Virus genome (UHGV): UHGV-0128598
DNA length: 11,616 bases
From: a virus
Strand: one strand, 5' to 3'
Shown here piece after piece: positions 1 through 11,616 of this stretch (the stretch's first letter is position 1; every line of letters begins with the position of its first letter). Under the pieces are notes generated by a model. That model saw nothing but the letters and a program-made list of their open reading frames with translations, searched no databases and was not told the DNA's origin. A program made the translations under genes and the position numbers.

Positions 1-182
1 TGCGGGAAAGCAGACGCAAGAAATAGCGGCAATGTCTGTCCGTCCAGTCGAGCATCGGCGCGATGGAAAAACGTGAAGGGCTGTATCCCGGCGTTTTTCC
101 TCTGTTAACGCTGTTCTGGTGTGGGTTGTGCGATTCTTTATTTTCGTGCATTTTTTGTCTTTATGTCGTATTTTTTCTTTAT

Positions 183-220
183 CAGCACCCCCAACAGCAC
201 CCCAGATTCATGGGGTGCTG
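183..220 (+). promoter_or_regulatory. Tandem direct repeat (CAGCACCCC x2) and perfect 9-bp inverted repeat (CAGCACCCC-8 nt-GGGGTGCTG) in the integrase 5' leader
   Basis: Read directly: cagcaccccc at 183-192 and cagcacccc at 195-203; the latter pairs with ggggtgctg at 212-220. It lies about 20 nt upstream of the int ATG (241) and just 5' of an AAGGA ribosome-binding site. A T-rich imperfectly repeated tract lies further upstream (about 130-180). Function (operator, arm-type site, or leader structure) is inferred. Confidence 0.4.
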
Positions 221-240
221 AACGAAGGTAAAGGAAAAGC

Positions 241-1329
241 ATGGCCTACTATAGCATAGAAAAACGTCAACGCGCCGATGGGACTTTACGCTACCGCTGC
301 ACCGTGGGCGTAAAAGAAGGTGGGAAATATATCTACCGGGAAAACCGAACATTCAGCAAACAGGCCCATGCCAAAACGTGGGGTGCTGGTAGGGTTGCTG
401 AACTGGAAACAAATGGGGTGCCGACCACCAACGACTTAAACAAAATGGTTGTTGGCGATCTGCTCAAACGCTATATCAACGATCCCAACCTCGGCGGCAA
501 AGCCGGGCGCACAAAACGTTATGTACTGGATATGTTGCTGGACTGCAACATCGCCGAAACCCCTCTGACAGACCTTTCAACCAGCCACGTTATCGAGCAT
601 TGCCGCCACAGAAACGGCGCTGGTGCCGGTCCTTCTACTATTAACCACGATGTAAGTTACCTTTCTTCCGTTCTGGCATCCGCCAAACCCGTCTACGGTA
701 TCGACTACACGACCAATCCCGCAACAGATGCAAGACCTCTACTGCTCCAGATGGGGCTGATTGGCAAATCCAAACGCCGCAGCCGCCGCCCTGTGAGCGA
801 CGAACTGGATAGACTGCTCGCAGGGCTTGAGGCCAGAAGCGATCACGTCGCAGCAAAAATCCCCTTCGTTGATATTCTTAACTTCTCAATCCTCAGTTGT
901 ATGCGAGTTGGCGAAGTGTGCAAAATCCGCTGGGAAGATGTAGACGAAAAACAAAAGGCCGTGCTGGTCAGAGACAGAAAAGACCCGCGCAAAAAATCCG
1001 GTAACCATATGCTGGTACCACTTCTCGGCGATGCCTGGAACATAGTGCAACGTCAGCCCAAAATCAGCGAGTTAATTTTCCCTTATAACTCTCGTTCTGT
1101 AACTGCGGGTTTTCAACGTGTCAGGAACGCCCTGGGCATTGAAGACTTGCGCTACCACGATATGCGCCGGGAGGGGGCCAGCAGGCTTTTTGAGGCGGGT
1201 TTTAGTATAGAAGAAGTGGCCCAGGTTACAGGCCATCGGTCTCTTAATGTACTCTGGCAGGTTTATACTGAACTGTTTCCGAAATCCCTGCATGAAAAGT
1301 ACGACGCGCTGCACGCTAAAAAGAAGTAG
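241..1329 (+). CDS. int: Phage tyrosine integrase (site-specific recombinase)
   Basis: 362-aa ORF with ATG start and AAGGA ribosome-binding site 6 nt upstream. C-terminal catalytic region shows the tyrosine-recombinase pattern: R in CMRVGEVCKIRWEDV, H-x-x-R in YHDMRREGASRLF, and H...Y in VTGHRSLNVLWQVYTELF. Sits at the edge of a phage gene block. Confidence 0.85.
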   Translation: MAYYSIEKRQRADGTLRYRCTVGVKEGGKYIYRENRTFSKQAHAKTWGAGRVAELETNGVPTTNDLNKMVVGDLLKRYINDPNLGGKAGRTKRYVLDMLLDCNIAETPLTDLSTSHVIEHCRHRNGAGAGPSTINHDVSYLSSVLASAKPVYGIDYTTNPATDARPLLLQMGLIGKSKRRSRRPVSDELDRLLAGLEARSDHVAAKIPFVDILNFSILSCMRVGEVCKIRWEDVDEKQKAVLVRDRKDPRKKSGNHMLVPLLGDAWNIVQRQPKISELIFPYNSRSVTAGFQRVRNALGIEDLRYHDMRREGASRLFEAGFSIEEVAQVTGHRSLNVLWQVYTELFPKSLHEKYDALHAKKK

Positions 1330-1561
1330 CTTTATACCACGCCTGCCAGCGATACTTATCCTGCCGCAGCTGGCGCAGACATTCAGCAGTTTCTATATCA
1401 GCCTGCAGATCTTCATCGCTGTCTGTTCCAGCTTTGCTCGCTCCCTTGCACGGCTCCTGCATCAAATCCGCTGATGGAGTTGGCCGCATCGAGGGCGCGC
1501 TGACGCAACTGCACAGCGTGATCGTCAAAATCGCACTTAGTATGATTCGGGTCGTTAACAT
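1316..1561 (-). CDS. Rz1-like outer-membrane spanin (o-spanin), overlapped with Rz
   Basis: 81-aa ORF in a different frame from Rz, starting inside Rz (ATG at 1561, GGTGA 5 nt upstream) and running past the Rz stop. N-terminus MLTTRIILSAILTITLCSCVSAPS looks like a lipoprotein signal with Cys at 17 and 19, though the lipobox is not canonical. Position directly after the endolysin and Rz. Its last 14 nt overlap the 3' end of int. Confidence 0.5.
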   Translation of the reverse strand: MLTTRIILSAILTITLCSCVSAPSMRPTPSADLMQEPCKGASKAGTDSDEDLQADIETAECLRQLRQDKYRWQAWYKATSF

Positions 1562-1796
1562 ATTTCACCACATCGCGATAAATGGTCCGGTAAATCACTT
1601 TGCCTTCTGCGCTGGACGCTGCCGCTTTCTGTTCGCCGGTTGCTACAGCCTTCTCAGCCTTTTTACTCTTCTCCTGATATTCGCTGTTTATCTTGTCACT
1701 GTGCGCGTACCAGCCTTTCAAGTAACCCGCGTAATACGCACCGACGAGCAACGCCAGCAGAACGGCCAGCGCTAACAATTTTGTTTTAAGGGTCAC
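1413..1796 (-). CDS. Rz-like inner-membrane spanin (i-spanin)
   Basis: The ORF track gives 1413-1814 (GTG start). A GTG at 1796 overlaps the endolysin stop as GTGA with GGGGGA 7 nt upstream, giving [25 protein letters not shown]..., a basic N-terminus followed by one transmembrane segment and a charged, helix-like periplasmic region. This is the typical Rz layout and position. Start codon is uncertain between 1796 and 1814. Confidence 0.65.
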   Translation of the reverse strand: MTLKTKLLALAVLLALLVGAYYAGYLKGWYAHSDKINSEYQEKSKKAEKAVATGEQKAAASSAEGKVIYRTIYRDVVKYVNDPNHTKCDFDDHAVQLRQRALDAANSISGFDAGAVQGSEQSWNRQR

Positions 1797-2323
1797 TGGT
1801 CTATCCCCCAGCACGTCAGCGCGCTTTCCTGGTCACGACGGGATACCTGCCCGTAGCAGTTATTGGAACGGATCCGGCAATCGCGTCCACCGTCTTTTAT
1901 CCACCACCTGATTGCTTCACATGCCCCCTTCCGATCGCCGGCATTGATTCGCTTATAGAACGTGGATGGGAAACACTTGCCGGGGCCGATATTGTACGGG
2001 CAGAACGACGCAATACCTGCTTTCTGCGGTTCAGTCAGCGGCACTTTGATATTGTGCTCTACCCAGGCTAGCGCTTTATCGCGTTCGATAGCGTTTACCT
2101 GGTCACATTTTGCCTGCGTCAGCTTCATACCCTTCACTACAGGCTTACCATCAACCATCGTGGCACCACGGCAAATCGTCCAAATTCCTCCAGCGTCACG
2201 GTATGCGGAGAGACTGTTGCCCTCTTTCTCATTCAGGAACTGATCGAGAATAACCGATGCTGGCGCACCGGCGAGTACCAGTCCCAGAACAGCAGCGCTA
2301 AGCTTAGTCCTGTTGCTGGTCAT
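1793..2323 (-). CDS. SAR endolysin (T4-type lysozyme fold, phage 21 R-like)
   Basis: 176 aa with ATG start and AGAGG ribosome-binding site. N-terminal Gly/Ala-rich weakly hydrophobic segment [19 protein letters not shown] (signal-anchor-release type) followed by the catalytic triad spacing E-x8-D-x5-T in [16 protein letters not shown]. Start overlaps the holin 3' end by 20 nt; stop overlaps the Rz start. Confidence 0.85.
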
Positions 2324-2540
2324 AGAGTTGAGCCTCTTTGCGACGGTCTTCTTTGATTTTGAAATAGAGATTGGTCAGGTAGGTAACCAGCCCCAGAAAT
2401 ATACTCGCCAGCACACCGATAGCAGCCCACTGGCTTGGGCTGACTTTATCGAGTAATTGCAGTAACCAGAAGACGCCACTGCCCCCGGACGTAATATAGG
2501 AAGCACCTGCCGCCAGACCTGAATGGTTGTTCATCCTCAT
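2304..2540 (-). CDS. Pinholin, phage 21 S-like class II holin with dual-start motif
   Basis: 78 aa with two predicted transmembrane segments and a charged C-terminus ([11 protein letters not shown]). Strong resemblance, from memory, to phage 21 S pinholin ([12 protein letters not shown]...[16 protein letters not shown]). Starts M-R-M (ATG AGG ATG), the Met-basic-Met arrangement used for holin/antiholin dual starts. Directly upstream of a SAR endolysin. Confidence 0.8.
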
Positions 2541-2587
2541 ACCTTACCCCCCGTAGGGAACACTATTAAGTGCTCCGAGGGTAAGGT
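2541..2587 (-). promoter_or_regulatory. Hairpin enclosing the holin ribosome-binding site (perfect 9-bp inverted repeat, 29-nt loop)
   Basis: Plus-strand ACCTTACCC at 2541-2549 is the exact reverse complement of GGGTAAGGT at 2579-2587. On the sense (minus) strand the 3' arm GGGUAAGGU sits immediately 5' of the holin AUG and contains the Shine-Dalgarno-like G-rich element. Confidence 0.4.
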
Positions 2588-2595
2588 GGTGATGT

Positions 2596-2610
2596 GGTCG
2601 GAATCCTGAC
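2596..2610. repeat. Copy A (degenerate) of the 16-bp inverted-repeat motif GGTCGGAATCCCGACC
   Basis: GGTCGGAATCCTGAC read directly; differs from copies B and C by one substitution, with the final base absent (next base is T). Lies in the acyltransferase-holin intergenic region, 55 nt upstream of the holin ATG. Confidence 0.6.
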
Positions 2611-2651
2611 TATTGGAGGTATTGACCCGAGAGCCAACATAATGAATTCAT

Positions 2652-3755
2652 TTAGGGTGTATTTAACCCTTTAATTTTTTTATGGCTTAGCAAGCCGAAC
2701 AGGCCCCATATTTTATTAAAGGCGCGTGTTACTTTTTTATCCAGAAGCTTTATGTACAGCGCTGCAATAGTAAACGATATTAACATCGAAATAACTATCG
2801 TCACCTCATAGTTAACAAAAGTCTTCGTAACCGGATATTCAACCCACCACTTCCTTTCAAACATAGCGTGAGACCAAAATCCGATATCGGCATGTATTAA
2901 ATACAGTGGGTATGTCATCGCCCCAAGAAACTTAACAACATTATAAAACTTACCGACTTCAGATACGTTAGATGCACACCAGGTTAACGTAACAAGAGAG
3001 ATACATGCGAGCAGAAGAGATGCATCAGAAACTGAATACCCAAAACTTCCATTTACATATGAATTAAAACCCAACATTCTATTATATATGAGGATCACAC
3101 TAAGAACCATCAAGACGAAATCAAAAGGAGATGGCTTATTTTTCATTATGTCATATATTACTATCCCTGCAATGAAATGACCGGCATGTTCAGTTATAAA
3201 TAGCGCATCAACAAAGCTAGAATGGATTAAAAATTGATTGCTGTATGAAATCACCAACCATGCAAAGCAAATCTCCCTTCTGTAACCACTCCAAATGTTA
3301 AATAACATCATAATGAAAACCAATATATAAAATGTCACCTCTTTCTGAATTGTCCAATAGATATCGCTAAAAAAATGATATCCGAACACTTGGGGGAAAA
3401 ACGTAAAGCTATAGAATAAAGAAACAATCCTTTCCTTAAAATCAACCATTGGTATAAAGCACTGAAACACTAAAACTATAAATCCAAATATTATAAAGGT
3501 GGGTACTATCCTATTAATCCTTGACTTAATAAATTCAACAGGTGTTCTTCCAACTGATGAAAGTGATATTACAAATCCACTTATAATGAAAAATAAATCA
3601 ACACCAAAGTCCCCAAAATAGAAGGCATTAACTGTTAACTCTTTCGGTAGGAAGCCTGAGATAGGCCCAGCGAACAAGTAGTGGTACAACATCACCATCA
3701 TAAATGCCATAAAGCGAAGACCGTCGAGCGCTTCAATCCTTACTGTGGTTTTCAT
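2652..3755 (-). CDS. Integral-membrane acyltransferase, Acyl_transf_3 (OafA/Oac) family; probable O-antigen O-acetyltransferase
   Basis: The track starts at TTG 3758; ATG at 3755 is the likely start (AGAGGA upstream), about 367 aa. Highly hydrophobic with many predicted transmembrane segments and the family motifs: R-x10-H (LDGLRFMAFMMVMLYH), FFxISG (VDLFFIISGFVIS) and RI.P (RINRIVPTF). Markedly AT-rich compared with its neighbours. Confidence 0.85.
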   Translation of the reverse strand: MKTTVRIEALDGLRFMAFMMVMLYHYLFAGPISGFLPKELTVNAFYFGDFGVDLFFIISGFVISLSSVGRTPVEFIKSRINRIVPTFIIFGFIVLVFQCFIPMVDFKERIVSLFYSFTFFPQVFGYHFFSDIYWTIQKEVTFYILVFIMMLFNIWSGYRREICFAWLVISYSNQFLIHSSFVDALFITEHAGHFIAGIVIYDIMKNKPSPFDFVLMVLSVILIYNRMLGFNSYVNGSFGYSVSDASLLLACISLVTLTWCASNVSEVGKFYNVVKFLGAMTYPLYLIHADIGFWSHAMFERKWWVEYPVTKTFVNYEVTIVISMLISFTIAALYIKLLDKKVTRAFNKIWGLFGLLSHKKIKGLNTP

Positions 3756-3760
3756 CAAAT

Positions 3761-3803
3761 CCTCTGGAGTATGCTTTTTACTAAGGAAATCATACCCCAG
3801 AGG
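3761..3803 (-). promoter_or_regulatory. 13-bp inverted repeat (17-nt loop) between tailspike and acyltransferase, enclosing the acyltransferase ribosome-binding site
   Basis: Plus-strand cctctggagtatg (3761-3773) and cataccccagagg (3791-3803) are reverse complements with one mismatch. On the minus-strand RNA that mismatch is a G-U wobble, so all 13 bp pair; on the plus-strand RNA it would be a C-A mismatch. The 3' arm contains the AGAGG element 5 nt before the start. Confidence 0.4.
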
Positions 3804-3819
3804 CTTTACTAATCAAAGT

Positions 3820-6321
3820 TTATCTTGTCAATCGCGCGACGATACCCGCCATGACAAAAACGATTATCTGGTCGTAGTTTAATCCGTATGTGTCGGCCTC
3901 TACATCATGCTCAATCATTTTATACTTTCTGTAATCAAGCCCGTGTCTAGCCATTACCTTCATGACATGCTGTACGGTATACCCAATGTTAACCCCCGCC
4001 TGCTCGCCAAAGTCTCGGCAATCCTTGAGCCACCGGAAAGTACCTGCGCCTAATGCAAGCTCCTGGGATGCTGCAATCTCGGCATCAGTAAATGGTTCAA
4101 TCTCAGTTTTCTGGCGTGCATCAGAGGTAGTAACCACGCCACCTGCTGAATATACACTAGCCCATCTCCTTGAAGAGTTTCCAAGTGTGTAAGTATTGTC
4201 AATATGGGGACCACATGCCCCATTAACATCAAGAGGAAATATTGGATTATCAGTGTTAACCCCAACATTACCACCGCGTGGGTTAATAACTACCTGGTAG
4301 TTATTACCTGATGAATCACTACCCTGAATAAAACCGCCATTAGAACCAGAGTTGCTTAAACATCCAAACTGTAACTCTCTACCACCATCATTATATGAAG
4401 ATCTAAATATTGCTGATGTTTTCAACGTTGAATCTGACAGCGGAATATTTGTTTTATTATCTACAGAAAATAATGCCCTTGGTGTTCCTCCCGTATTCAT
4501 TACCCCAACAAGCCCGCCTGGTGTTATCTCCATAACTTTATGTGGCTTATAGGCCCCATCATCACCATTGTAGAACCGTATGGGGTAATAGTATCCGTTG
4601 CCAGCTATACCGGCTCTAATCTCGTATTCACCAGTCGCTTTTGCAGATATACTGAGATTTTCTTCATCAGCCCCCGTAGTCTTCTGCACGCGGATCGTAC
4701 TTATCTGCGCCCCAATATCGTCACGAATTTTATATGTTGCGCCTGTAGCATTTATAGACGTGTCCTGTAAATTACAGGTGTTGCCGTTATTTGAAATACT
4801 GACAACAGTGCGTAGCGTACCGTTCAGCCAGAATTTATAGGCTCCACTACCGTAACCGAAGAAAAAAAACGGGTCCCCTGACGTTCTGGTGCAAACACCG
4901 TTAATCACGTCACAAATGCCACCACCAGTGGTGTACACATAATGGAATTTTGAGTGCGTACCCACTGCCGCAGTAAGATCCCCGCCGCCTATTTCTGTTA
5001 CGGAAATCTGCCCTGTTGAGGTTAATGCAGTAATTACCAGCGCCCGTTCAAATGCGTATATAGCATCGCCTACTGACCACTTATCTAAGTCGAATAAAGA
5101 GCCACCCTCTCTGACCAGAATATTTTGTGATTGGTGGACTAGTTGACCTTGTGCAGCAGAGCCGTATACAACCACTTCTGAAGGATTGTAATTTTTACTA
5201 GTCTGAATACGCATCCAATTTGCATGACCATCAGATGATAAAAACATACCGTCACCTGAATCCATTAAAGCCCCACCACCGACCTTGAATCCCCCTGAGT
5301 TAGTAGTGGTACCTGCCGAAACAACGCCAGCCCCAAATTTGGTCTCATCTCGTTTACGATACTGGACATTAAGGAATGCCGAGAACGATACTGCTGGTGA
5401 TAAGATTGCCTCGGAGTCCACAACCAGTGTTGGGAGTTTCGCCCACACTAAAGCTATTGGTGTATTGCAAACATAATTCCCCTGCGGAACGTGCAAAGTG
5501 GTACACCCGGAAGGTAGGTTGGATATCATAGAAGCCCAAGCCGCGCTCTCGTCCGAACCATCCCCCCTGACCCCGAAATCTTTTACGCTCAGTGTGTCGG
5601 CGTTTTTATCATGCTGTGTACGCCCCACAGATCCAGAATATGGCTGTTTTACCCCGATAAGAGCATCGCCCTTGCCGCTATCGGTGCTCGCGAGATCTAC
5701 CAAAACATCAGCAGCGCTACCACTCTCTGGACGAACAAATATCGGAGCACCCTCAGCATTGTAAGCCTGTAATCTGTTTGCACGCTGCTCAGCTGGTGCA
5801 AGCGGTGCCACGTAGTTTTCAGGCACGCGCAATGCCCTGTTAAGATTGGTCTGCCCGACCTCCTGCACGTATTTTTTGGTTGCTGCGTCCTGGTCATTAA
5901 CCGGATCCGCAAGGCCGGATATGCGATACCCTTCTGCGTTAAACGGTCCTCCAAGCAACGGGCGACGTAACGCCAGTCCGAGATAAATAAAAGAACGCTG
6001 GATAGCCATCCAGAGGCGGTCAAAATCTTTATTGACGGTATCTGCCAGCAGATCGCCATTGTCCTGGTAATCAGTCAGGCGATAGGTAGGAACAACACGT
6101 TCCAGCATAACAACCGTGCCGTTAGCAGGTGGGGTTAAAAACGTAAGATCACCACCGCTAACGTTACCCACTCCCGACACAGTAAATCCAGTAGTAACAG
6201 GCGTACCATTAAGACTCACCTGAATATCGCTGGCGCTGATGATGTAGAACTCAAAGGGAAAAACGGTCGTCAGACCGTTGGCGTTATAAATAATATAGGG
6301 GGTCTGATTCGGTACCGACAT
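3820..6321 (-). CDS. Tailspike/tail fibre: T7 gp17-like N-terminal anchor, pectate-lyase-like beta-helix depolymerase, C-terminal peptidase S74 intramolecular chaperone
   Basis: 833 aa, ATG start. The N-terminal 150 aa or so resemble, as recalled, the T7 tail-fibre N-terminal domain (VFPFEFY, ERVVPTYRLTDY, ISGLADPVNDQDAATKKYV). The mid region carries the pectate-lyase-3 start signature SVKDFGVRGDGSDESAAWASMISNL. The C-terminus has the autoproteolytic chaperone motif ...SSRRWASVYSAGGVVTTSDARQKTEIEPF. Confidence 0.9.
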   Translation of the reverse strand: MSVPNQTPYIIYNANGLTTVFPFEFYIISASDIQVSLNGTPVTTGFTVSGVGNVSGGDLTFLTPPANGTVVMLERVVPTYRLTDYQDNGDLLADTVNKDFDRLWMAIQRSFIYLGLALRRPLLGGPFNAEGYRISGLADPVNDQDAATKKYVQEVGQTNLNRALRVPENYVAPLAPAEQRANRLQAYNAEGAPIFVRPESGSAADVLVDLASTDSGKGDALIGVKQPYSGSVGRTQHDKNADTLSVKDFGVRGDGSDESAAWASMISNLPSGCTTLHVPQGNYVCNTPIALVWAKLPTLVVDSEAILSPAVSFSAFLNVQYRKRDETKFGAGVVSAGTTTNSGGFKVGGGALMDSGDGMFLSSDGHANWMRIQTSKNYNPSEVVVYGSAAQGQLVHQSQNILVREGGSLFDLDKWSVGDAIYAFERALVITALTSTGQISVTEIGGGDLTAAVGTHSKFHYVYTTGGGICDVINGVCTRTSGDPFFFFGYGSGAYKFWLNGTLRTVVSISNNGNTCNLQDTSINATGATYKIRDDIGAQISTIRVQKTTGADEENLSISAKATGEYEIRAGIAGNGYYYPIRFYNGDDGAYKPHKVMEITPGGLVGVMNTGGTPRALFSVDNKTNIPLSDSTLKTSAIFRSSYNDGGRELQFGCLSNSGSNGGFIQGSDSSGNNYQVVINPRGGNVGVNTDNPIFPLDVNGACGPHIDNTYTLGNSSRRWASVYSAGGVVTTSDARQKTEIEPFTDAEIAASQELALGAGTFRWLKDCRDFGEQAGVNIGYTVQHVMKVMARHGLDYRKYKMIEHDVEADTYGLNYDQIIVFVMAGIVARLTR

Positions 6322-6342
6322 GGCGTGTAACCTCTGGCAGGG

Positions 6343-7953
6343 TTAATAATCGACTTCGACCTCATGGTCTCCGTCACTTAACTGCCAATGTTCCCGCGAT
6401 TGTCCGGTCGGAATCCCGACCACTTTGCCGATACGAACCGGCGTTGCACTAATAGCACCCGCACCAGAATCAATGAAATCGTCCGGCTGGTTGGTCAGTG
6501 CCGGGTTAAAGTCCCGCATCTGGTCGTACATCGGGCCATCAAGCACGTCAGTGTGCGCCCACAGGAAACGGGAAGACAAAGGAGCTTCGAACGCATCAAG
6601 GATACGCTTCTGCTTGTTTGTCACGCTGAATTCTTCCCGCACGCCGCACCCGGTACCTTTTAACGCCTGCCGCAGCAGTTTTCCCGCAAAGCCGCCGGGG
6701 CCGTTTACCTCGACACAAACAACGGGGATCTGGTATCGGATAACCAGCTCTTTAATCTGGGCGACCTGCCCGCCAGTAATCTTGTCGTTATCGTCAAACT
6801 CTGCCAGTTCACCAGTCAGCTCCTTGCAAACATGCCAGTACAGATGTCCGCGCGCGTCAGTCAGTATCAGGGATAACGCTGAGGCGTCCGCTTTCACTTT
6901 ACCGGTTGCCACGTCCCACCACGCCACAGCACCAACAATTTGCGTGCTGCCGAGCCACATCGAGGCGGTACGGTTGGCGTAGCGAATTTCAGGATGGATG
7001 TTGTACTCACGGATGCGATCAGGATCGAGACGAACGTCGCCAACGGGTTTACTGTGCAGCTGGTACTGGCTGTCCCACTCGTTAACGGTGCGACATTCTT
7101 TACGGCGCAACTCCAGCTCGTCATGATCGAATCGCTCAGGCCAGGCACATCCGGCGTAGAAATCAATAACCGTCTCTGGCGCCGCAGCAAACTCCACGCC
7201 GTCGGCGGTCAGCTTGTAGTCAACATCCTCGACCAGCAGTCGCGCCGCTTTATGGATGCCCGCGAAAACGTACTCCGGCCGGAACGGAATAACGTAGCGC
7301 AGCTGCGTGGCATCCTTCGCCTCGATGCGCTTTTCTTTCTCAAACAGTTTAATGGTCAGACAGTCAGCACCTGCCGATTCCATTTCATCGTAGAGGCTGT
7401 CATGTGTGTGCGGTGTACCGATAAAGAGCTTTCGCCCGCCGGGGATCAGGATGTGAGTTTGCTCGCTCAGGCGGTATCGCAGTTTCTCACGCGCTTCCGG
7501 CGTCTGGATGTTGCCGGGGACTTCCACGTCGTCGTTCTGGCACTCATTTGCACGCGCGCCGGTAACGTTCGACAGGATACCTTTTGCGAACATGCTCGCG
7601 TTACGCATATCCAGCGAACCGTTAACCCACCACTGCTCGACTGTGCCGAGTCCATCCGGCAACATGCCTTTTGTCAGGGGGTGATTGCGTAAAACGTTCT
7701 GCGTATCGCGGCTGGTTTTGCGCGCTGTGGAATCTGATTCAGACTGGTGCAGGACCCGGTACTGGCGGTCGCAGTAATATCGCCATGCGTTATAAACGCC
7801 CAGTATGGTAGATTTACCGAAACCACGAAAACAGCGAAGCACCGCAAGATTTCCGCGATGCTCCAGCCAGTGACAGGCACGATAGTGGCAGTCCGGAACG
7901 TCCCAGTTCATCCGCTCCGCCCACATTAAAAAGAAGGCGAGGAACGAAATCAT
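6343..7953 (-). CDS. Terminase large subunit, T7 gp19-like (DNA maturase B)
   Basis: 536 aa, ATG start. Walker A in RGFGKSTILG, plus DDVEVP...AREKL and FIGTPHTHDSLYDE, which resemble T7 gp19 as recalled (AFRGIGKS, ADDVEIP...AREKL, YLGTPQT..LY). Start overlaps the upstream gene stop as ATGA. Confidence 0.85.
   Translation of the reverse strand: MISFLAFFLMWAERMNWDVPDCHYRACHWLEHRGNLAVLRCFRGFGKSTILGVYNAWRYYCDRQYRVLHQSESDSTARKTSRDTQNVLRNHPLTKGMLPDGLGTVEQWWVNGSLDMRNASMFAKGILSNVTGARANECQNDDVEVPGNIQTPEAREKLRYRLSEQTHILIPGGRKLFIGTPHTHDSLYDEMESAGADCLTIKLFEKEKRIEAKDATQLRYVIPFRPEYVFAGIHKAARLLVEDVDYKLTADGVEFAAAPETVIDFYAGCAWPERFDHDELELRRKECRTVNEWDSQYQLHSKPVGDVRLDPDRIREYNIHPEIRYANRTASMWLGSTQIVGAVAWWDVATGKVKADASALSLILTDARGHLYWHVCKELTGELAEFDDNDKITGGQVAQIKELVIRYQIPVVCVEVNGPGGFAGKLLRQALKGTGCGVREEFSVTNKQKRILDAFEAPLSSRFLWAHTDVLDGPMYDQMRDFNPALTNQPDDFIDSGAGAISATPVRIGKVVGIPTGQSREHWQLSDGDHEVEVDY
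6406..6421. repeat. Copy B of the 16-bp inverted-repeat motif GGTCGGAATCCCGACC (6-bp arms, 4-nt spacer)
   Basis: Exact 16-mer shared with copy C. Lies inside the last 26 codons or so of the terminase gene (encoding ...VGIPTG...), 84 nt upstream of the tailspike ATG. Confidence 0.65.
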
Positions 7954-8291
7954 TTTTTGCCTTTCTGCAGGCGCTCGATAATGGCGAGGGCTTCACGCTC
8001 CGCCTTCGATACCTGCTGCCCCAGCGCAAAGGCTTCATCATCCTGCCCGGGGTTATCTGAAGGCGTACCACCGCGCGTTTGCATGCCAATAAGGGAATGC
8101 ACCTTAATCAGCAGCGTCAGCGAAGCCGCCGCGTTCTTCTTGTCCCAGTATCGATCGCCGCGCTCGTCTTTGGTCAGTTCGCTGGGTTTCTTCCCCGCCC
8201 CCGGCCAGTTGTCCGGATCGGCTTCTTCGAGCACCACGTCAGTGAGTTTATCGCTCAGCGCGGTAAGGCGTGTCTTGTAATCCTGATGCAT
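7950..8291 (-). CDS. Putative terminase small subunit (called by position only)
   Basis: The track extends to a TTG at 8375, but that would read through a terminator-like hairpin and the 3' end of the upstream gene. The first ATG is at 8291 (MHQDYKTRLTALSDK..., 113 aa). Acidic/charged small protein whose stop overlaps the large terminase start (ATGA). No sequence motif recognised. Confidence 0.45.
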   Translation of the reverse strand: MHQDYKTRLTALSDKLTDVVLEEADPDNWPGAGKKPSELTKDERGDRYWDKKNAAASLTLLIKVHSLIGMQTRGGTPSDNPGQDDEAFALGQQVSKAEREALAIIERLQKGKK

Positions 8292-8319
8292 AAAAAAGCC
8301 CTGTAGTGAATACAGGGCT
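8292..8319 (-). terminator. Intrinsic-terminator-like hairpin (9-bp stem, 5-nt loop) followed by T6 on the minus strand
   Basis: Minus strand reads AGCCCTGTA-TTCAC-TACAGGGCT-TTTTT and then the ATG at 8291. Lies between the gp16-like gene stop (8356) and the small terminase start. It leaves no room for a Shine-Dalgarno element, so it may instead be a leader or processing structure. Confidence 0.5.
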
Positions 8320-8337
8320 ATGGTGTATGCTTTTTGA

Positions 8338-8353
8338 GGTCGGAATCCCGACC
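8338..8353. repeat. Copy C of the 16-bp inverted-repeat motif GGTCGGAATCCCGACC
   Basis: Exact 16-mer, starting 2 nt after the stop of the gp16-like gene on the minus strand, 46 nt upstream of the small terminase ATG and just upstream of the terminator-like hairpin. Confidence 0.65.
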
Positions 8354-8355
8354 GA

Positions 8356-9870
8356 TTACCGCATGCCGGGGTCAACCTGATTTATCAGCGGCGCTATCCA
8401 GAAAAGATTATTACCCGGCAGCAGCGTACGCACGTTATGCAGTACCCGATCGCCAGCATCACCGTTGAGCACTCCGGCGGTCACATCGGTGACGGTATCC
8501 AGCAAGCCAAACGTCGGGCCGAGAGCGGAGCCAATAAAGCCACGGCTGGCATAGCGAGACTGTGTGCCGGTACCGAGCAGTGCACCCAGCCCCACCATAC
8601 CGCCGGAGGCTTTTTCTGCCATGTTGTTATATTCCATCAGCGGGCCGAGAATACCGGACCGGTCGATACCTTCAATGGCCAGTTTCTGAGGCGACCAGTC
8701 AACCTCTTTACCATTTGCGGATTGTTTAAGTGCGTACGTCAGTGCGCCGAGGCTAATCTGGAAAGCGGTACCGTAATAAAACTGTCCGGTTCCCTCCTGC
8801 AGGCCGCCCAGCGTTGCGCGGTTGTAGGACGCGGTAGCGAACGATTTAAACTGGAAGATAGTTTTACCCAGTGGCGTGCTGGCCCACAATGGCGTATCGC
8901 CGATCCCCGGTGTGATAACTGTATTGTTAACGTCTTTGAGCACGGCCGACTGAAAAACGCCAGCCACATGCTGATCGTCCCATTTTTCAAAATTGCCGAT
9001 ATGCCAGCCATTGATTACCTCACCGTGTTTTTCGAATTCGCTGCGAATACGCGCGGCCATATTGTCGTTAATGCCGAGCTTGGCAAGGCGGCGGCCCGCA
9101 AACGCGCCGGACAGAATGCCGTCGGAGGTGATCATGCCGTTTACCGATTTGTTCATATCGTCGAAGTGGCCCATCAGCGTGAGCTTGCCGAACGCATCGG
9201 TGACGCGCTCCATTCCCGCCTCTACCGCTGTAGTGCGGGAGGAGCTGTCTACCAGGTCACCCATCGTACGCGCACGGGTATGCAGGATGGTTTCCAGCCC
9301 GACGGCCATTTTTAACTGTTCGGCCCGGCTGGCCTTGAATGCCGGCGACCGGGTTATCAGCGCAGAGTAACCGCGCATGGTATTGCCAAACCCGTTAACC
9401 ATCACACCGCGGGCGAGATCAGGAATAGCGGAAACGGTCATACCGCCCAGCTTGGTGACAAAGTTGGCGCTACGCAGAAACGCACCGGCGCGAACGAAAA
9501 ATGATGATGGGTCATCCGGCATACCGTAGGTACCGACGAGGCGATCGCGAAGCGCCAGAATATCGCGCAGATCGGCTTCGCGCGCCTTCGCCAGCTTTTC
9601 CTGCTCTGCCGGGCGTAACCGCATCAGCGCGTCGTATTCGTCCTGGATGGCAGCGAGCTGCGAATCCAGCGACTTGTTGCCAAAGGTACGGGTTAATTCA
9701 ATTTCCGCTGAGGCTTCGCGGATATGACGCTGCAGGACGTAGTTTGCATCGCTCTCCAGATAATCTTTCATCAGGCGATCGGGAACGCTCAACGTACGCG
9801 ATTTGGTGCTGCCCGGCGATTTCAGCATCTTCGCGGGACATGGTTTTCTCACCGCGTGACCACCAGTCAA
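8356..9870 (-). CDS. Internal virion (ejection) protein, T7 gp16-like, C-terminal portion; apparently separated from the N-terminal portion by a frameshift
   Basis: 504-aa ORF. Gly/Ala-rich hydrophobic stretches and a FQFKSF motif resembling the C-terminal part of T7 gp16 as recalled. The first 30 codons or so look non-protein-like and overlap the upstream ORF, so the true N-terminal boundary is probably the frame junction near 9795-9802. Confidence 0.6.
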   Translation of the reverse strand: MTGGHAVRKPCPAKMLKSPGSTKSRTLSVPDRLMKDYLESDANYVLQRHIREASAEIELTRTFGNKSLDSQLAAIQDEYDALMRLRPAEQEKLAKAREADLRDILALRDRLVGTYGMPDDPSSFFVRAGAFLRSANFVTKLGGMTVSAIPDLARGVMVNGFGNTMRGYSALITRSPAFKASRAEQLKMAVGLETILHTRARTMGDLVDSSSRTTAVEAGMERVTDAFGKLTLMGHFDDMNKSVNGMITSDGILSGAFAGRRLAKLGINDNMAARIRSEFEKHGEVINGWHIGNFEKWDDQHVAGVFQSAVLKDVNNTVITPGIGDTPLWASTPLGKTIFQFKSFATASYNRATLGGLQEGTGQFYYGTAFQISLGALTYALKQSANGKEVDWSPQKLAIEGIDRSGILGPLMEYNNMAEKASGGMVGLGALLGTGTQSRYASRGFIGSALGPTFGLLDTVTDVTAGVLNGDAGDRVLHNVRTLLPGNNLFWIAPLINQVDPGMR

Positions 9871-11182
9871 CCAGCATATTGCGGAATTTATCTCGCTCGC
9901 TAACGATTTTACCCACCTTGTACACGCGCGGAAAATAGCTGGTCTGTCCCATCGCTTTCAGTTCGGCATCCGGCGGGAGTAAGCCCAGTTCCTGCTGGGC
10001 TGTCTTCACGCGGTTAATGACCGTACGCATTGCCTGCGCAGCTTCCTGCACTTTTGCATTAACGTGCACGTCGCCGTTACGCAGCGCCTCGCCAACCTGT
10101 TCACGGAAGGCCGTATAACCCAGATCGCCGCCTTCGGCTTTATACTGGGTGTATGCCTGCTTATTCGCAGTAACGACGGCCGCCTCTTCGCGGTGCCAGC
10201 CACGTACGCGCGTCTCGGCTGCTACCGGTGTTTCGATACCGCGCAGGTTGCCTTCCAGCGTGAAGTTATTCTCCGCCAACTCCAGCGCTGTCCGGCGCGC
10301 TTCTTTTGATGGGGATTCCATCAGGCGGGTGATCGGCGTCAGATAGCTACCGGCCTTTTTAGCCAGCTTGCCGAGCGGGCCGCCAGACACCGGTGTGAGG
10401 TCTTCCAGCGTTGCTTCGCGAATACGCATGGCGCCGACGCTGCCACCGTTCGGTAAAGTATCCGCCAGGGCGTCAGCTGCGTTGTTAATCGTTGGCGCGG
10501 CATTCATGTTATCGAGCGCCTCCGCCACTTCCCGTGTAGCCGCGTTTCTTACCGATGGGGTGATCATCGCGCCAGCAGTAGCAAATACACCGCTGAGAAG
10601 CGCGCCGGCTGTAATGTGCGCGGCGCTCTCCCTTGCTGTTCTGGTGTACTGCTCGTTATTGAGCGCAACCTCGCTAAGTGCGGTACCGGCGGCGCCAATA
10701 GCAATCTGAGAACCAATACGAGCAGCCAGGCTTCCCTGCGCACCGGGAATAAACATCGATGCGACCGTGACAGGGTCGATAACCCCGGCGGCGATACTGG
10801 CCAGAGTTCCTTCAGCGCCTGCCTCAGACAAAACCCGACGGTCTTCATTTTCATCGTCTATCTGGTTTTTTATCCAGGCGGTTTCCTCTGGCGATCGAGA
10901 ATCCGCAAAGGCGGATCCCCATTGTTCGTACCCCTTTAGTTCGTTTTTATCAGAATAAGGGTTATACCCGTCCGCCGGTTCGAATTGTTTGGCCGAGCGG
11001 AACATTCCAGCCAGCAGGTTATTCTGACGAAATGCAGCGCCCCACACAGACGGCTCATCCTGCTGAGGTGCTGGGTTAGTACCTTCAGGCAAAGGCACAT
11101 CAAATCCGGTAGGTGCAGCCAGGACATTACCCGCCGGAGTGAATCCGTTATTGAGTTCTTCAGGGGTGGCGTATACCGGCAT
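9698..11182 (-). CDS. Internal virion (ejection) protein, T7 gp16-like, N-terminal/central portion
   Basis: 494-aa ORF, ATG start overlapping the upstream stop (TAATG). Motifs resemble T7 gp16 as recalled: TPEEL, SEAGAEGTLASIAAGVIDPVTVASMFIPG (compare AGIIGAGVDPLSYVPMVG) and EKTMSREDAEI (compare AKMSREETRY). The last 30 codons or so are low-complexity and overlap the next ORF in another frame. No N-terminal transglycosylase-like region is evident. Confidence 0.6.
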   Translation of the reverse strand: MPVYATPEELNNGFTPAGNVLAAPTGFDVPLPEGTNPAPQQDEPSVWGAAFRQNNLLAGMFRSAKQFEPADGYNPYSDKNELKGYEQWGSAFADSRSPEETAWIKNQIDDENEDRRVLSEAGAEGTLASIAAGVIDPVTVASMFIPGAQGSLAARIGSQIAIGAAGTALSEVALNNEQYTRTARESAAHITAGALLSGVFATAGAMITPSVRNAATREVAEALDNMNAAPTINNAADALADTLPNGGSVGAMRIREATLEDLTPVSGGPLGKLAKKAGSYLTPITRLMESPSKEARRTALELAENNFTLEGNLRGIETPVAAETRVRGWHREEAAVVTANKQAYTQYKAEGGDLGYTAFREQVGEALRNGDVHVNAKVQEAAQAMRTVINRVKTAQQELGLLPPDAELKAMGQTSYFPRVYKVGKIVSERDKFRNMLVDWWSRGEKTMSREDAEIAGQHQIAYVERSRSPDERLSGERCKLRPAASYPRSLSGN

Positions 11183-11577
11183 TATTCAGTGCTCCACGAA
11201 AAGTAATTTTTAACCCTGTCCATGCGCTCGTTATGCAGGCGCTTGTACTGCTCATCGAGCGCACGGTGCTTATCTTTGAACCCACGAATATCCTGCCCGC
11301 GTTGCAGCTCATTGCGATCATGTTCTTCGCGCTCTTCCTGCATTTTTTTGTATGGCGCCCACTCTTCCAGTGACGGTTTCCAGCGCATCGGCCTGCCGTA
11401 CGAATCGTAGAACGGTTGTACCGCCTCGATACCATCCTTATCTTTTGTTCGCACCATGATGGCGTAATCGCCATTGCGGGCCGTCAGTACATCAGGGGTA
11501 ATTTCCAGATCGCCGCCAATACGCGACTCCGGCGTTTTGCTGGTGACAGGCGCTGCGTTACCGGGTGATGCTGCCAA
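11182..11577 (-). CDS. Hypothetical protein, translationally coupled to the gp16-like gene
   Basis: The track ORF starts at a TTG (11577) with no ribosome-binding site. The first ATG is at 11457 (MVRTKDKDG..., about 91 aa). Charged, helix-like C-terminus. Stop overlaps the next start (TAATG). A different frame is open from the window edge to a stop at 11484-11486, so an upstream gene may be cut by the window. Start and reality of this ORF are uncertain. Confidence 0.35.
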   Translation of the reverse strand: MAASPGNAAPVTSKTPESRIGGDLEITPDVLTARNGDYAIMVRTKDKDGIEAVQPFYDSYGRPMRWKPSLEEWAPYKKMQEEREEHDRNELQRGQDIRGFKDKHRALDEQYKRLHNERMDRVKNYFSWSTE

Positions 11578-11616
11578 CTTACTGATTTAGTGTATGATGG
11601 TGTTTTTGAGGTGCTC

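Follow-up and report, generated by a model that had tools for sequence, protein, structure and literature searches.

A 77-nt deletion splits a gp16-family internal virion protein gene in what is probably a decaying dusA prophage

The window analysed here, the whole 11,616-nt stretch of the virus genome UHGV-0128598, appears from its sequence to be the right arm of a temperate podophage related to TL-2011b that has inserted into the 5' end of dusA in an E. coli-type host. At the start of the window the dusA 5' end (positions 1-151, minus strand) adjoins a tyrosine integrase gene (241-1329, plus strand). The minus strand carries an intact gene for an O-acetyltransferase with an Acyl_transf_3 domain (2652-3758), which lies between the lysis cassette and a tail fibre or spike gene (3820-6321, minus strand) whose product combines a T7 tail-fibre N-terminal adaptor domain with a C-terminal Peptidase_S74 intramolecular chaperone domain. 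A spanin-like ORF and genes for a lysozyme, a holin, the terminase large subunit and a 113-aa product are also present. The same dusA prophage is found in two E. coli strains, STEC383 and B379. The STEC383 copy measures about 35 kb, has a displaced 5' fragment of dusA at its far end (L006:14849-14953) and encodes a LexA-family repressor and a replication module of DNA polymerase, DUF2800, DUF2815, VapE and SNF2 genes. Apart from the broken genes described below, the genes of the window (the dusA end, integrase, lysis genes, O-acetyltransferase, fibre, terminase and 113-aa ORF) have the same lengths as those of STEC383.

Two long ORFs on the minus strand overlap. The ORF of 494 aa (9698-11182) begins with ATG, and the ORF of 504 aa (8356-9870) begins with TTG. 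They have 173 nt in common (9698-9870), and since (11182-9870) mod 3 = 1, the 504-aa ORF is read in the +1 frame with respect to the 494-aa ORF. A sequence-only reading of this DNA had described this overlap in different frames and had quoted peptides from both sides of it; the arrangement is present as it described, and the peptides are found in the translations. It had further proposed that the ORFs are the two parts of one gp16-family internal virion (ejection) protein gene split by a lesion that changes the reading frame. Residues 25-469 of the 494-aa ORF match positions 204-676 of the profile of PHROG 342 (E 9e-79), and residues 19-503 of the 504-aa ORF match positions 720-1226 of the same profile (E 1.5e-111). 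PHROG 342 is labelled 'internal virion protein with endolysin domain', and the parts of the profile matched by the two ORFs are consecutive and non-overlapping. The prospect raised in the sequence-only reading that the ORFs might match unrelated proteins is not borne out, as both match PHROG 342. A Pfam search gave no match for either ORF. The match is far beyond chance, and the 494-aa and 504-aa ORFs are the 5' and 3' fragments of a single gp16-family gene; this interpretation is strengthened by the existence of intact orthologues of 967 aa.

A megablast search of 5426 complete E. coli genomes placed the gene on three chromosomes. The copies in STEC383 and B379 are 99.9% identical to the gene in the window, but where they measure 2904 nt the window copy has only 2827 nt; in both strains the gene is annotated as a single 2904-nt CDS for a protein of 967 aa (WP_001619039.1), which in STEC383 occupies positions 4659128-4662031. 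Window positions 1-9828 align with positions 646-10473 of the STEC383 locus (L001), and window positions 9814-11564 align with positions 10536-12286. The two aligned pieces overlap by 15 nt and leave a gap of 77 nt in the window relative to STEC383. The missing 77 nt correspond to L001 10459-10535, although this placement can be shifted by up to 5 nt. In the intact gene the segment is flanked by an imperfect direct repeat with 13 of 15 positions matching (CGGCGCTTTCACCAT / CGGCGATTTCAGCAT). The 5-nt motif CGGCG is the only exactly shared part at the junction and the longest exact repeat there, and it is kept once in the window, at 9814-9818, as a microhomology that marks the deletion junction. 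A hairpin that might promote slippage was sought by DNA folding of the deleted stretch, and no signal was found (z = -0.17). Where the BLAST pieces overlap, positions 9819 and 9825 took on the look of SNPs; they are the two places at which the copies of the imperfect repeat disagree, and are no true differences.

The alignment locates and redefines the lesion. The sequence-only reading had placed a frame change near 9795-9802, about 15 nt from the junction at 9814-9818, and where it had envisaged a plain frame change, alignment to intact homologues gives a 77-nt deletion instead. The split is caused by this deletion and by no one-base shift. The window lacks codons 457-481 and a further 2 nt (25 codons plus 2 nt), and the lost residues 457-481 are ADTTINRIVGAKIPQEFASVFMVKA. 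Because -77 is congruent to +1 mod 3, the two remaining ORFs stand in a +1 frame relation. Positions 9815-11182 correspond to native codons 1-456, and residues 1-456 of the 494-aa ORF are identical to those of the STEC383 protein; after these codons come 38 that are out of frame and then a TGA (9698-9700). The native sequence continues up to ...EDAEIA (residue 456) in the upstream ORF and resumes with PGSTKSR (residue 482) in the downstream ORF, in which positions 8356-9816 comprise native codons 482-967 and the stop codon. The first part of the downstream ORF (9817-9870) consists of 18 codons that are open by chance and that are the coding sequence of the upstream fragment read in the +1 frame. 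Inspection of the sequence ahead of the in-frame ATGs of the 3' fragment (M15 and M34) revealed no Shine-Dalgarno-like motif, and gene callers differ on the start of this fragment, predicting products of 471 aa and 422 aa.

Relatives of the gene indicate which state is ancestral. The 77-nt segment is kept in every relative checked, namely STEC383, strain 23GD11002 (in which the gene has 86% nucleotide identity and the prophage occupies a different integration site) and phage TL-2011b, and the 25 residues 457-481 are conserved in 17 of 17 homologues sampled from Escherichia, Enterobacter, Salmonella, Citrobacter, Serratia, Pluralibacter and Trabulsiella. The retention of the 77 nt and of the 25 residues in relatives therefore marks the window allele as a derived deletion and argues against an insertion elsewhere. 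The best 120 protein clusters at 90% identity are all 956-967 aa long, and 107 of them are exactly 963 aa. An exhaustive HMMER search returned 4725 representative clusters at E <= 1e-3, and the best 150 of these 4725 representatives at 50% identity are all single proteins of at least 758 aa, mostly of 950-1800 aa. Uninterrupted frames of 959-963 aa occupy four of six loci in species-representative genomes; the other two (in Raoultella scottii and in an assembly named 'Pseudomonas lundensis') hold remnants that are truncated in other ways and lack an upstream SLT gene. Homologues split into two genes with the same boundaries, which the sequence-only reading had named as evidence against a lesion, are absent from the best 120 clusters, the best 150 representatives and the six loci, and the related prophages or phages compared at this locus (STEC383, B379, 23GD11002 and TL-2011b) all carry a single in-frame gene. 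Megablast with the gene as query matched none of 50,697 phage records, and relatives emerged only by protein-level search.

The two remnants are independently truncated. In R. scottii the remnant (L011 4001-6172) covers residues 243-967 only, and in the 'Pseudomonas lundensis' assembly (L013 4001-4351) it covers residues 851-967 only. It is odd to meet an enterobacterial prophage fragment of 89% identity in a Pseudomonas assembly, and contamination may be the reason.

A second lesion lies immediately upstream of the gp16-like gene. Positions 11182-11564 (minus strand) hold the 3' remnant, about the last 127 codons, of a gene for a 902-aa internal virion protein with an SLT domain that occupies the gp15 position; the remnant matches phrog_1044 and phrog_38128 at their C-terminal ends only. 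The stop codon of this gene and the start codon (ATG) of the gp16-like gene have 1 nt in common. Homology to STEC383 ends at 11564, and the last 52 nt of the window (11565-11616, plus strand) come from the left end of an IS1 element. This element interrupts the SLT-domain gene some 383 nt before its stop codon, at a boundary that is ambiguous by 2 nt (11563-11565). Another contig lengthens the IS1 stretch to 127 nt (L003:1-127), and this 127-nt stretch matches IS1-family elements in 4963 of the 5426 E. coli genomes. The junction between prophage and IS1 occurs in none of the 5426 complete E. coli genomes. The two carrier contigs that were examined break off within IS1. Independently of the deletion, IS1 breaks the internal virion gene adjacent to the gp16-like gene.

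The SLT-domain gene differs between the two strains that carry the intact gp16-like gene. In STEC383 (L001:11904-14611) it is annotated as frameshifted and its translation contains four stops, whereas in B379 (L014:6904-9612) it is intact. The same prophage thus carries different lesions in different strains.

The sequence-only reading had likened the two ORFs to consecutive parts of T7 gp16. This kinship holds insofar as T7 gp16 itself belongs to PHROG 342 (1354 bits) and the intact 967-aa orthologue matches the PHROG 342 profile in one stretch (positions 204-1226, E 9e-195). Moreover, comparison of an alignment of 35 diverse homologues (A1) with T7 gp16 by hhalign gave a colinear match of 638 aligned columns to residues 517-1295 with a probability of 97.9% (E 5e-13). 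The relationship is nevertheless remote, and the protein lacks the N-terminal lytic transglycosylase (SLT) domain. Pairwise BLASTP against T7 gp16 detected no more than weak patches in colinear order (E 0.008 and 0.039), with about 25% identity, positions 1-203 of PHROG 342 were left unmatched, and no Pfam SLT match was obtained. A phmmer search of the intact protein against PDB sequences found nothing meaningful, and the best PDB match of the 35-homologue profile was weak (9vvp Gp29, E 0.08), with no solved T7 gp16 chain matched.

Gene order supplies both likenesses and differences. As with T7 gp16, the gene closes the internal virion block, following a gp14-like gene (phrog_418) and a gene in the gp15 position, and in STEC383, 23GD11002 and TL-2011b it stands downstream of the tail tubular genes as the last internal virion gene. 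Unlike T7 gp16, which has 1318 aa, the intact orthologue has 967 aa, and the SLT domain is placed in the preceding gene, that of 902 aa. The host phage also differs from T7 in being temperate: it has an integrase, and the 35-kb prophage of STEC383 lacks an RNA polymerase gene. The name 'gp16-like' is fair if it is taken to mean remote homology with another distribution of domains. The case also has some minor value in showing that the transglycosylase domain of a gp16-family member has been relocated to a neighbouring gene.

What, then, is the best explanation for the two overlapping ORFs? We put the probability at roughly 0.93 that they represent a gp16-like pseudogene recently inactivated by the 77-nt deletion in a decaying dusA prophage whose neighbouring virion gene is cut by IS1. 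A gene of 967 codons has lost 77 nt by illegitimate deletion between short imperfect direct repeats that share the 5-nt microhomology, presumably through replication slippage or microhomology-mediated joining. The deletion has removed codons 457-481 and moved the frame by +1, ending the 5' part after 38 nonsense codons and leaving of the 3' part only a reading frame that is open but not well provided with a start. Insertion of IS1 accounts for the truncation of the SLT-domain internal virion gene. That the sequence-only reading was right to list an inactivating mutation in a defective prophage is supported by the near-identical intact orthologues and by the finding that no homologue is split at this point.

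The consequences for the phage follow from the biology of T7, in which gp14, gp15 and gp16 make the ejection channel and are needed for infection. Given this background, a truncated gp16 homologue and a partner gene cut by IS1, we infer that the ejection apparatus can no longer be built and that the prophage would yield no infectious particles. The gp16-like gene would be without function and the phage non-viable. The sequence-only reading had held that the lesion bears on the viability of the element, and this inference gains from the IS1 end at 11565-11616, which that reading did not see and which breaks the adjacent gene. Both the deletion and the IS1 lesion are recent, because the window differs from STEC383 by a single SNP (11350) besides the deletion over about 11.5 kb, and the gp16-like gene is intact there.

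One alternative is that the true DNA is intact and that the 77 nt were dropped in sequencing or assembly. The exact 494-aa product occurs only in metagenome assemblies from ENA, JGI and Logan (five contigs read), all that is known of the allele coming from short-read metagenome assemblies, while the intact 967-aa sequence is found in more than 190 isolate contigs and the broken allele in none of the 5426 complete E. coli genomes. The deletion accordingly rests on assemblies, and the carrier contigs may derive from one or a few samples. Exact scans gave no further copies: a 28-mer spanning the deletion junction was absent from JGI metagenome contigs and from species-representative genomes, and a 30-mer spanning the IS1/prophage junction was absent from metagenome contigs. 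The JGI collection that was scanned apparently lacks the source contig, and these scans provide no independent count of carriers. Against an artefact stands the length of the longest exact repeat at the junction, 5 nt, which is far under any assembler k-mer (k=127, to judge by the name of the ENA contig); because the exact repeat is this short, repeat collapse cannot explain the loss. In addition, identical sequence was obtained from at least two sources and pipelines. A contig from ENA (SRR413712, ENA accession ERZ917291, with a name prefixed k127) and a contig from JGI (3300055891, 11,653 nt) both match the window over its full length at 100% identity, and Logan is also listed for the protein. 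A loss of 77 nt is also unlike a read error of the homopolymer type. The assembly error that the sequence-only reading had offered as an option is therefore very unlikely, even though the allele is known from assemblies only.

Another alternative is that the two halves function as separate polypeptides that the prophage or the host still uses. In many distant homologues the best alignment starts only at about residue 445-485 and runs on to the C-terminus, and one homologue, P0058 (956 aa), has an in-frame gap of 7 aa (PQDFANV) within residues 457-481. These alignment starts and the gap suggest that gp16-family proteins have a linker or module boundary at about residues 450-480, and that a conserved C-terminal module of about 500 aa begins near the break. 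It is conceivable, but we think highly improbable, that the fragments, or the C-terminal module alone, are still made and used as a split ejection protein or have been co-opted by the host. Several observations count against such a use. No natural two-gene homologue was seen in the best 120 and 150 clusters or at the six loci, and the 3' half shows neither a convincing start nor a Shine-Dalgarno motif, with gene callers disagreeing on where it begins. Furthermore, the upstream gene is destroyed by IS1, an insertion that is expected to be polar on the operon as well, and the allele is rare and very young, being separated from the STEC383 copy by one SNP. Were the halves nevertheless in use, they would expose a separable domain boundary in the large and poorly understood proteins of the gp16 family.

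Programmed +1 (or -2) ribosomal frameshifting that fuses both ORFs into one functional protein, the remaining option of the sequence-only reading, would suit the +1 relation of the 173-nt overlap and has precedents in phage structural genes such as T7 10A/10B (annotation note) and in phage tail chaperones, but it is hardly credible here and we reject it, given that in near-identical orthologues the gene is single and in frame, that the overlap was made by the deletion, that no homologue examined keeps a two-frame overlap (0 split homologues in the best 120 clusters and the best 150 distant representatives), that a fusion product would still lack 25 conserved residues and would contain nonsense residues, and that the overlap, read by eye, shows no recognisable +1 slippery or stop-codon context.

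Reading the locus as a pseudogene in a decaying prophage has practical implications for annotation. The two ORFs should be recorded as one pseudogene and neither as two hypothetical proteins nor as a frameshift site, and the element is best classed as a defective prophage in which the gp16-like gene has suffered a deletion and the SLT gene is cut by IS1. The remaining intact parts, including the integrase, lysis cassette, tail fibre and O-acetyltransferase, may still affect the phenotype of the host. The O-acetyltransferase is probably lysogenic-conversion cargo that modifies the O-antigen, and it may remain useful to the host after the death of the phage.

The locus resembles what is known of cryptic-prophage decay in the Enterobacteriaceae. 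A frame-shifting microhomology deletion and an IS1 insertion have struck essential virion genes while other genes, including the likely conversion cargo, are intact, and two of the six species-representative loci are truncated as well. Nothing of substance differs from the deletions between short direct repeats and the IS insertions already described for such prophages; the window adds one very young instance. The gene decay seen here is ordinary.

Among deposited phages, the closest relative of the broken gene is gp38 of Escherichia phage TL-2011b (NC_019445, YP_007001989.1), a temperate podophage from EHEC O103:H25, with 73% amino acid identity over 100% coverage. A literature search on TL-2011b found nothing on gp38. 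In TL-2011b, too, an SLT or 'endolysin' gene lies upstream with internal virion proteins before it, and an O-acetyltransferase gene is present. TL-2011b differs in that its gene is a single CDS of 1004 codons that holds the stretch deleted in the window, and in its surrounding late-gene order and integration module.

Two features of the related prophages lie beyond the broken genes. In 23GD11002 a sialate O-acetylesterase gene occupies the tail-fibre slot, which implies that the receptor-binding module has been swapped. In relatives, a GNAT N-acetyltransferase gene lies between tail tubular B and the internal virion genes (L001:15084-15533; L002:15100-15549), outside the window and in an unusual position for such an enzyme.
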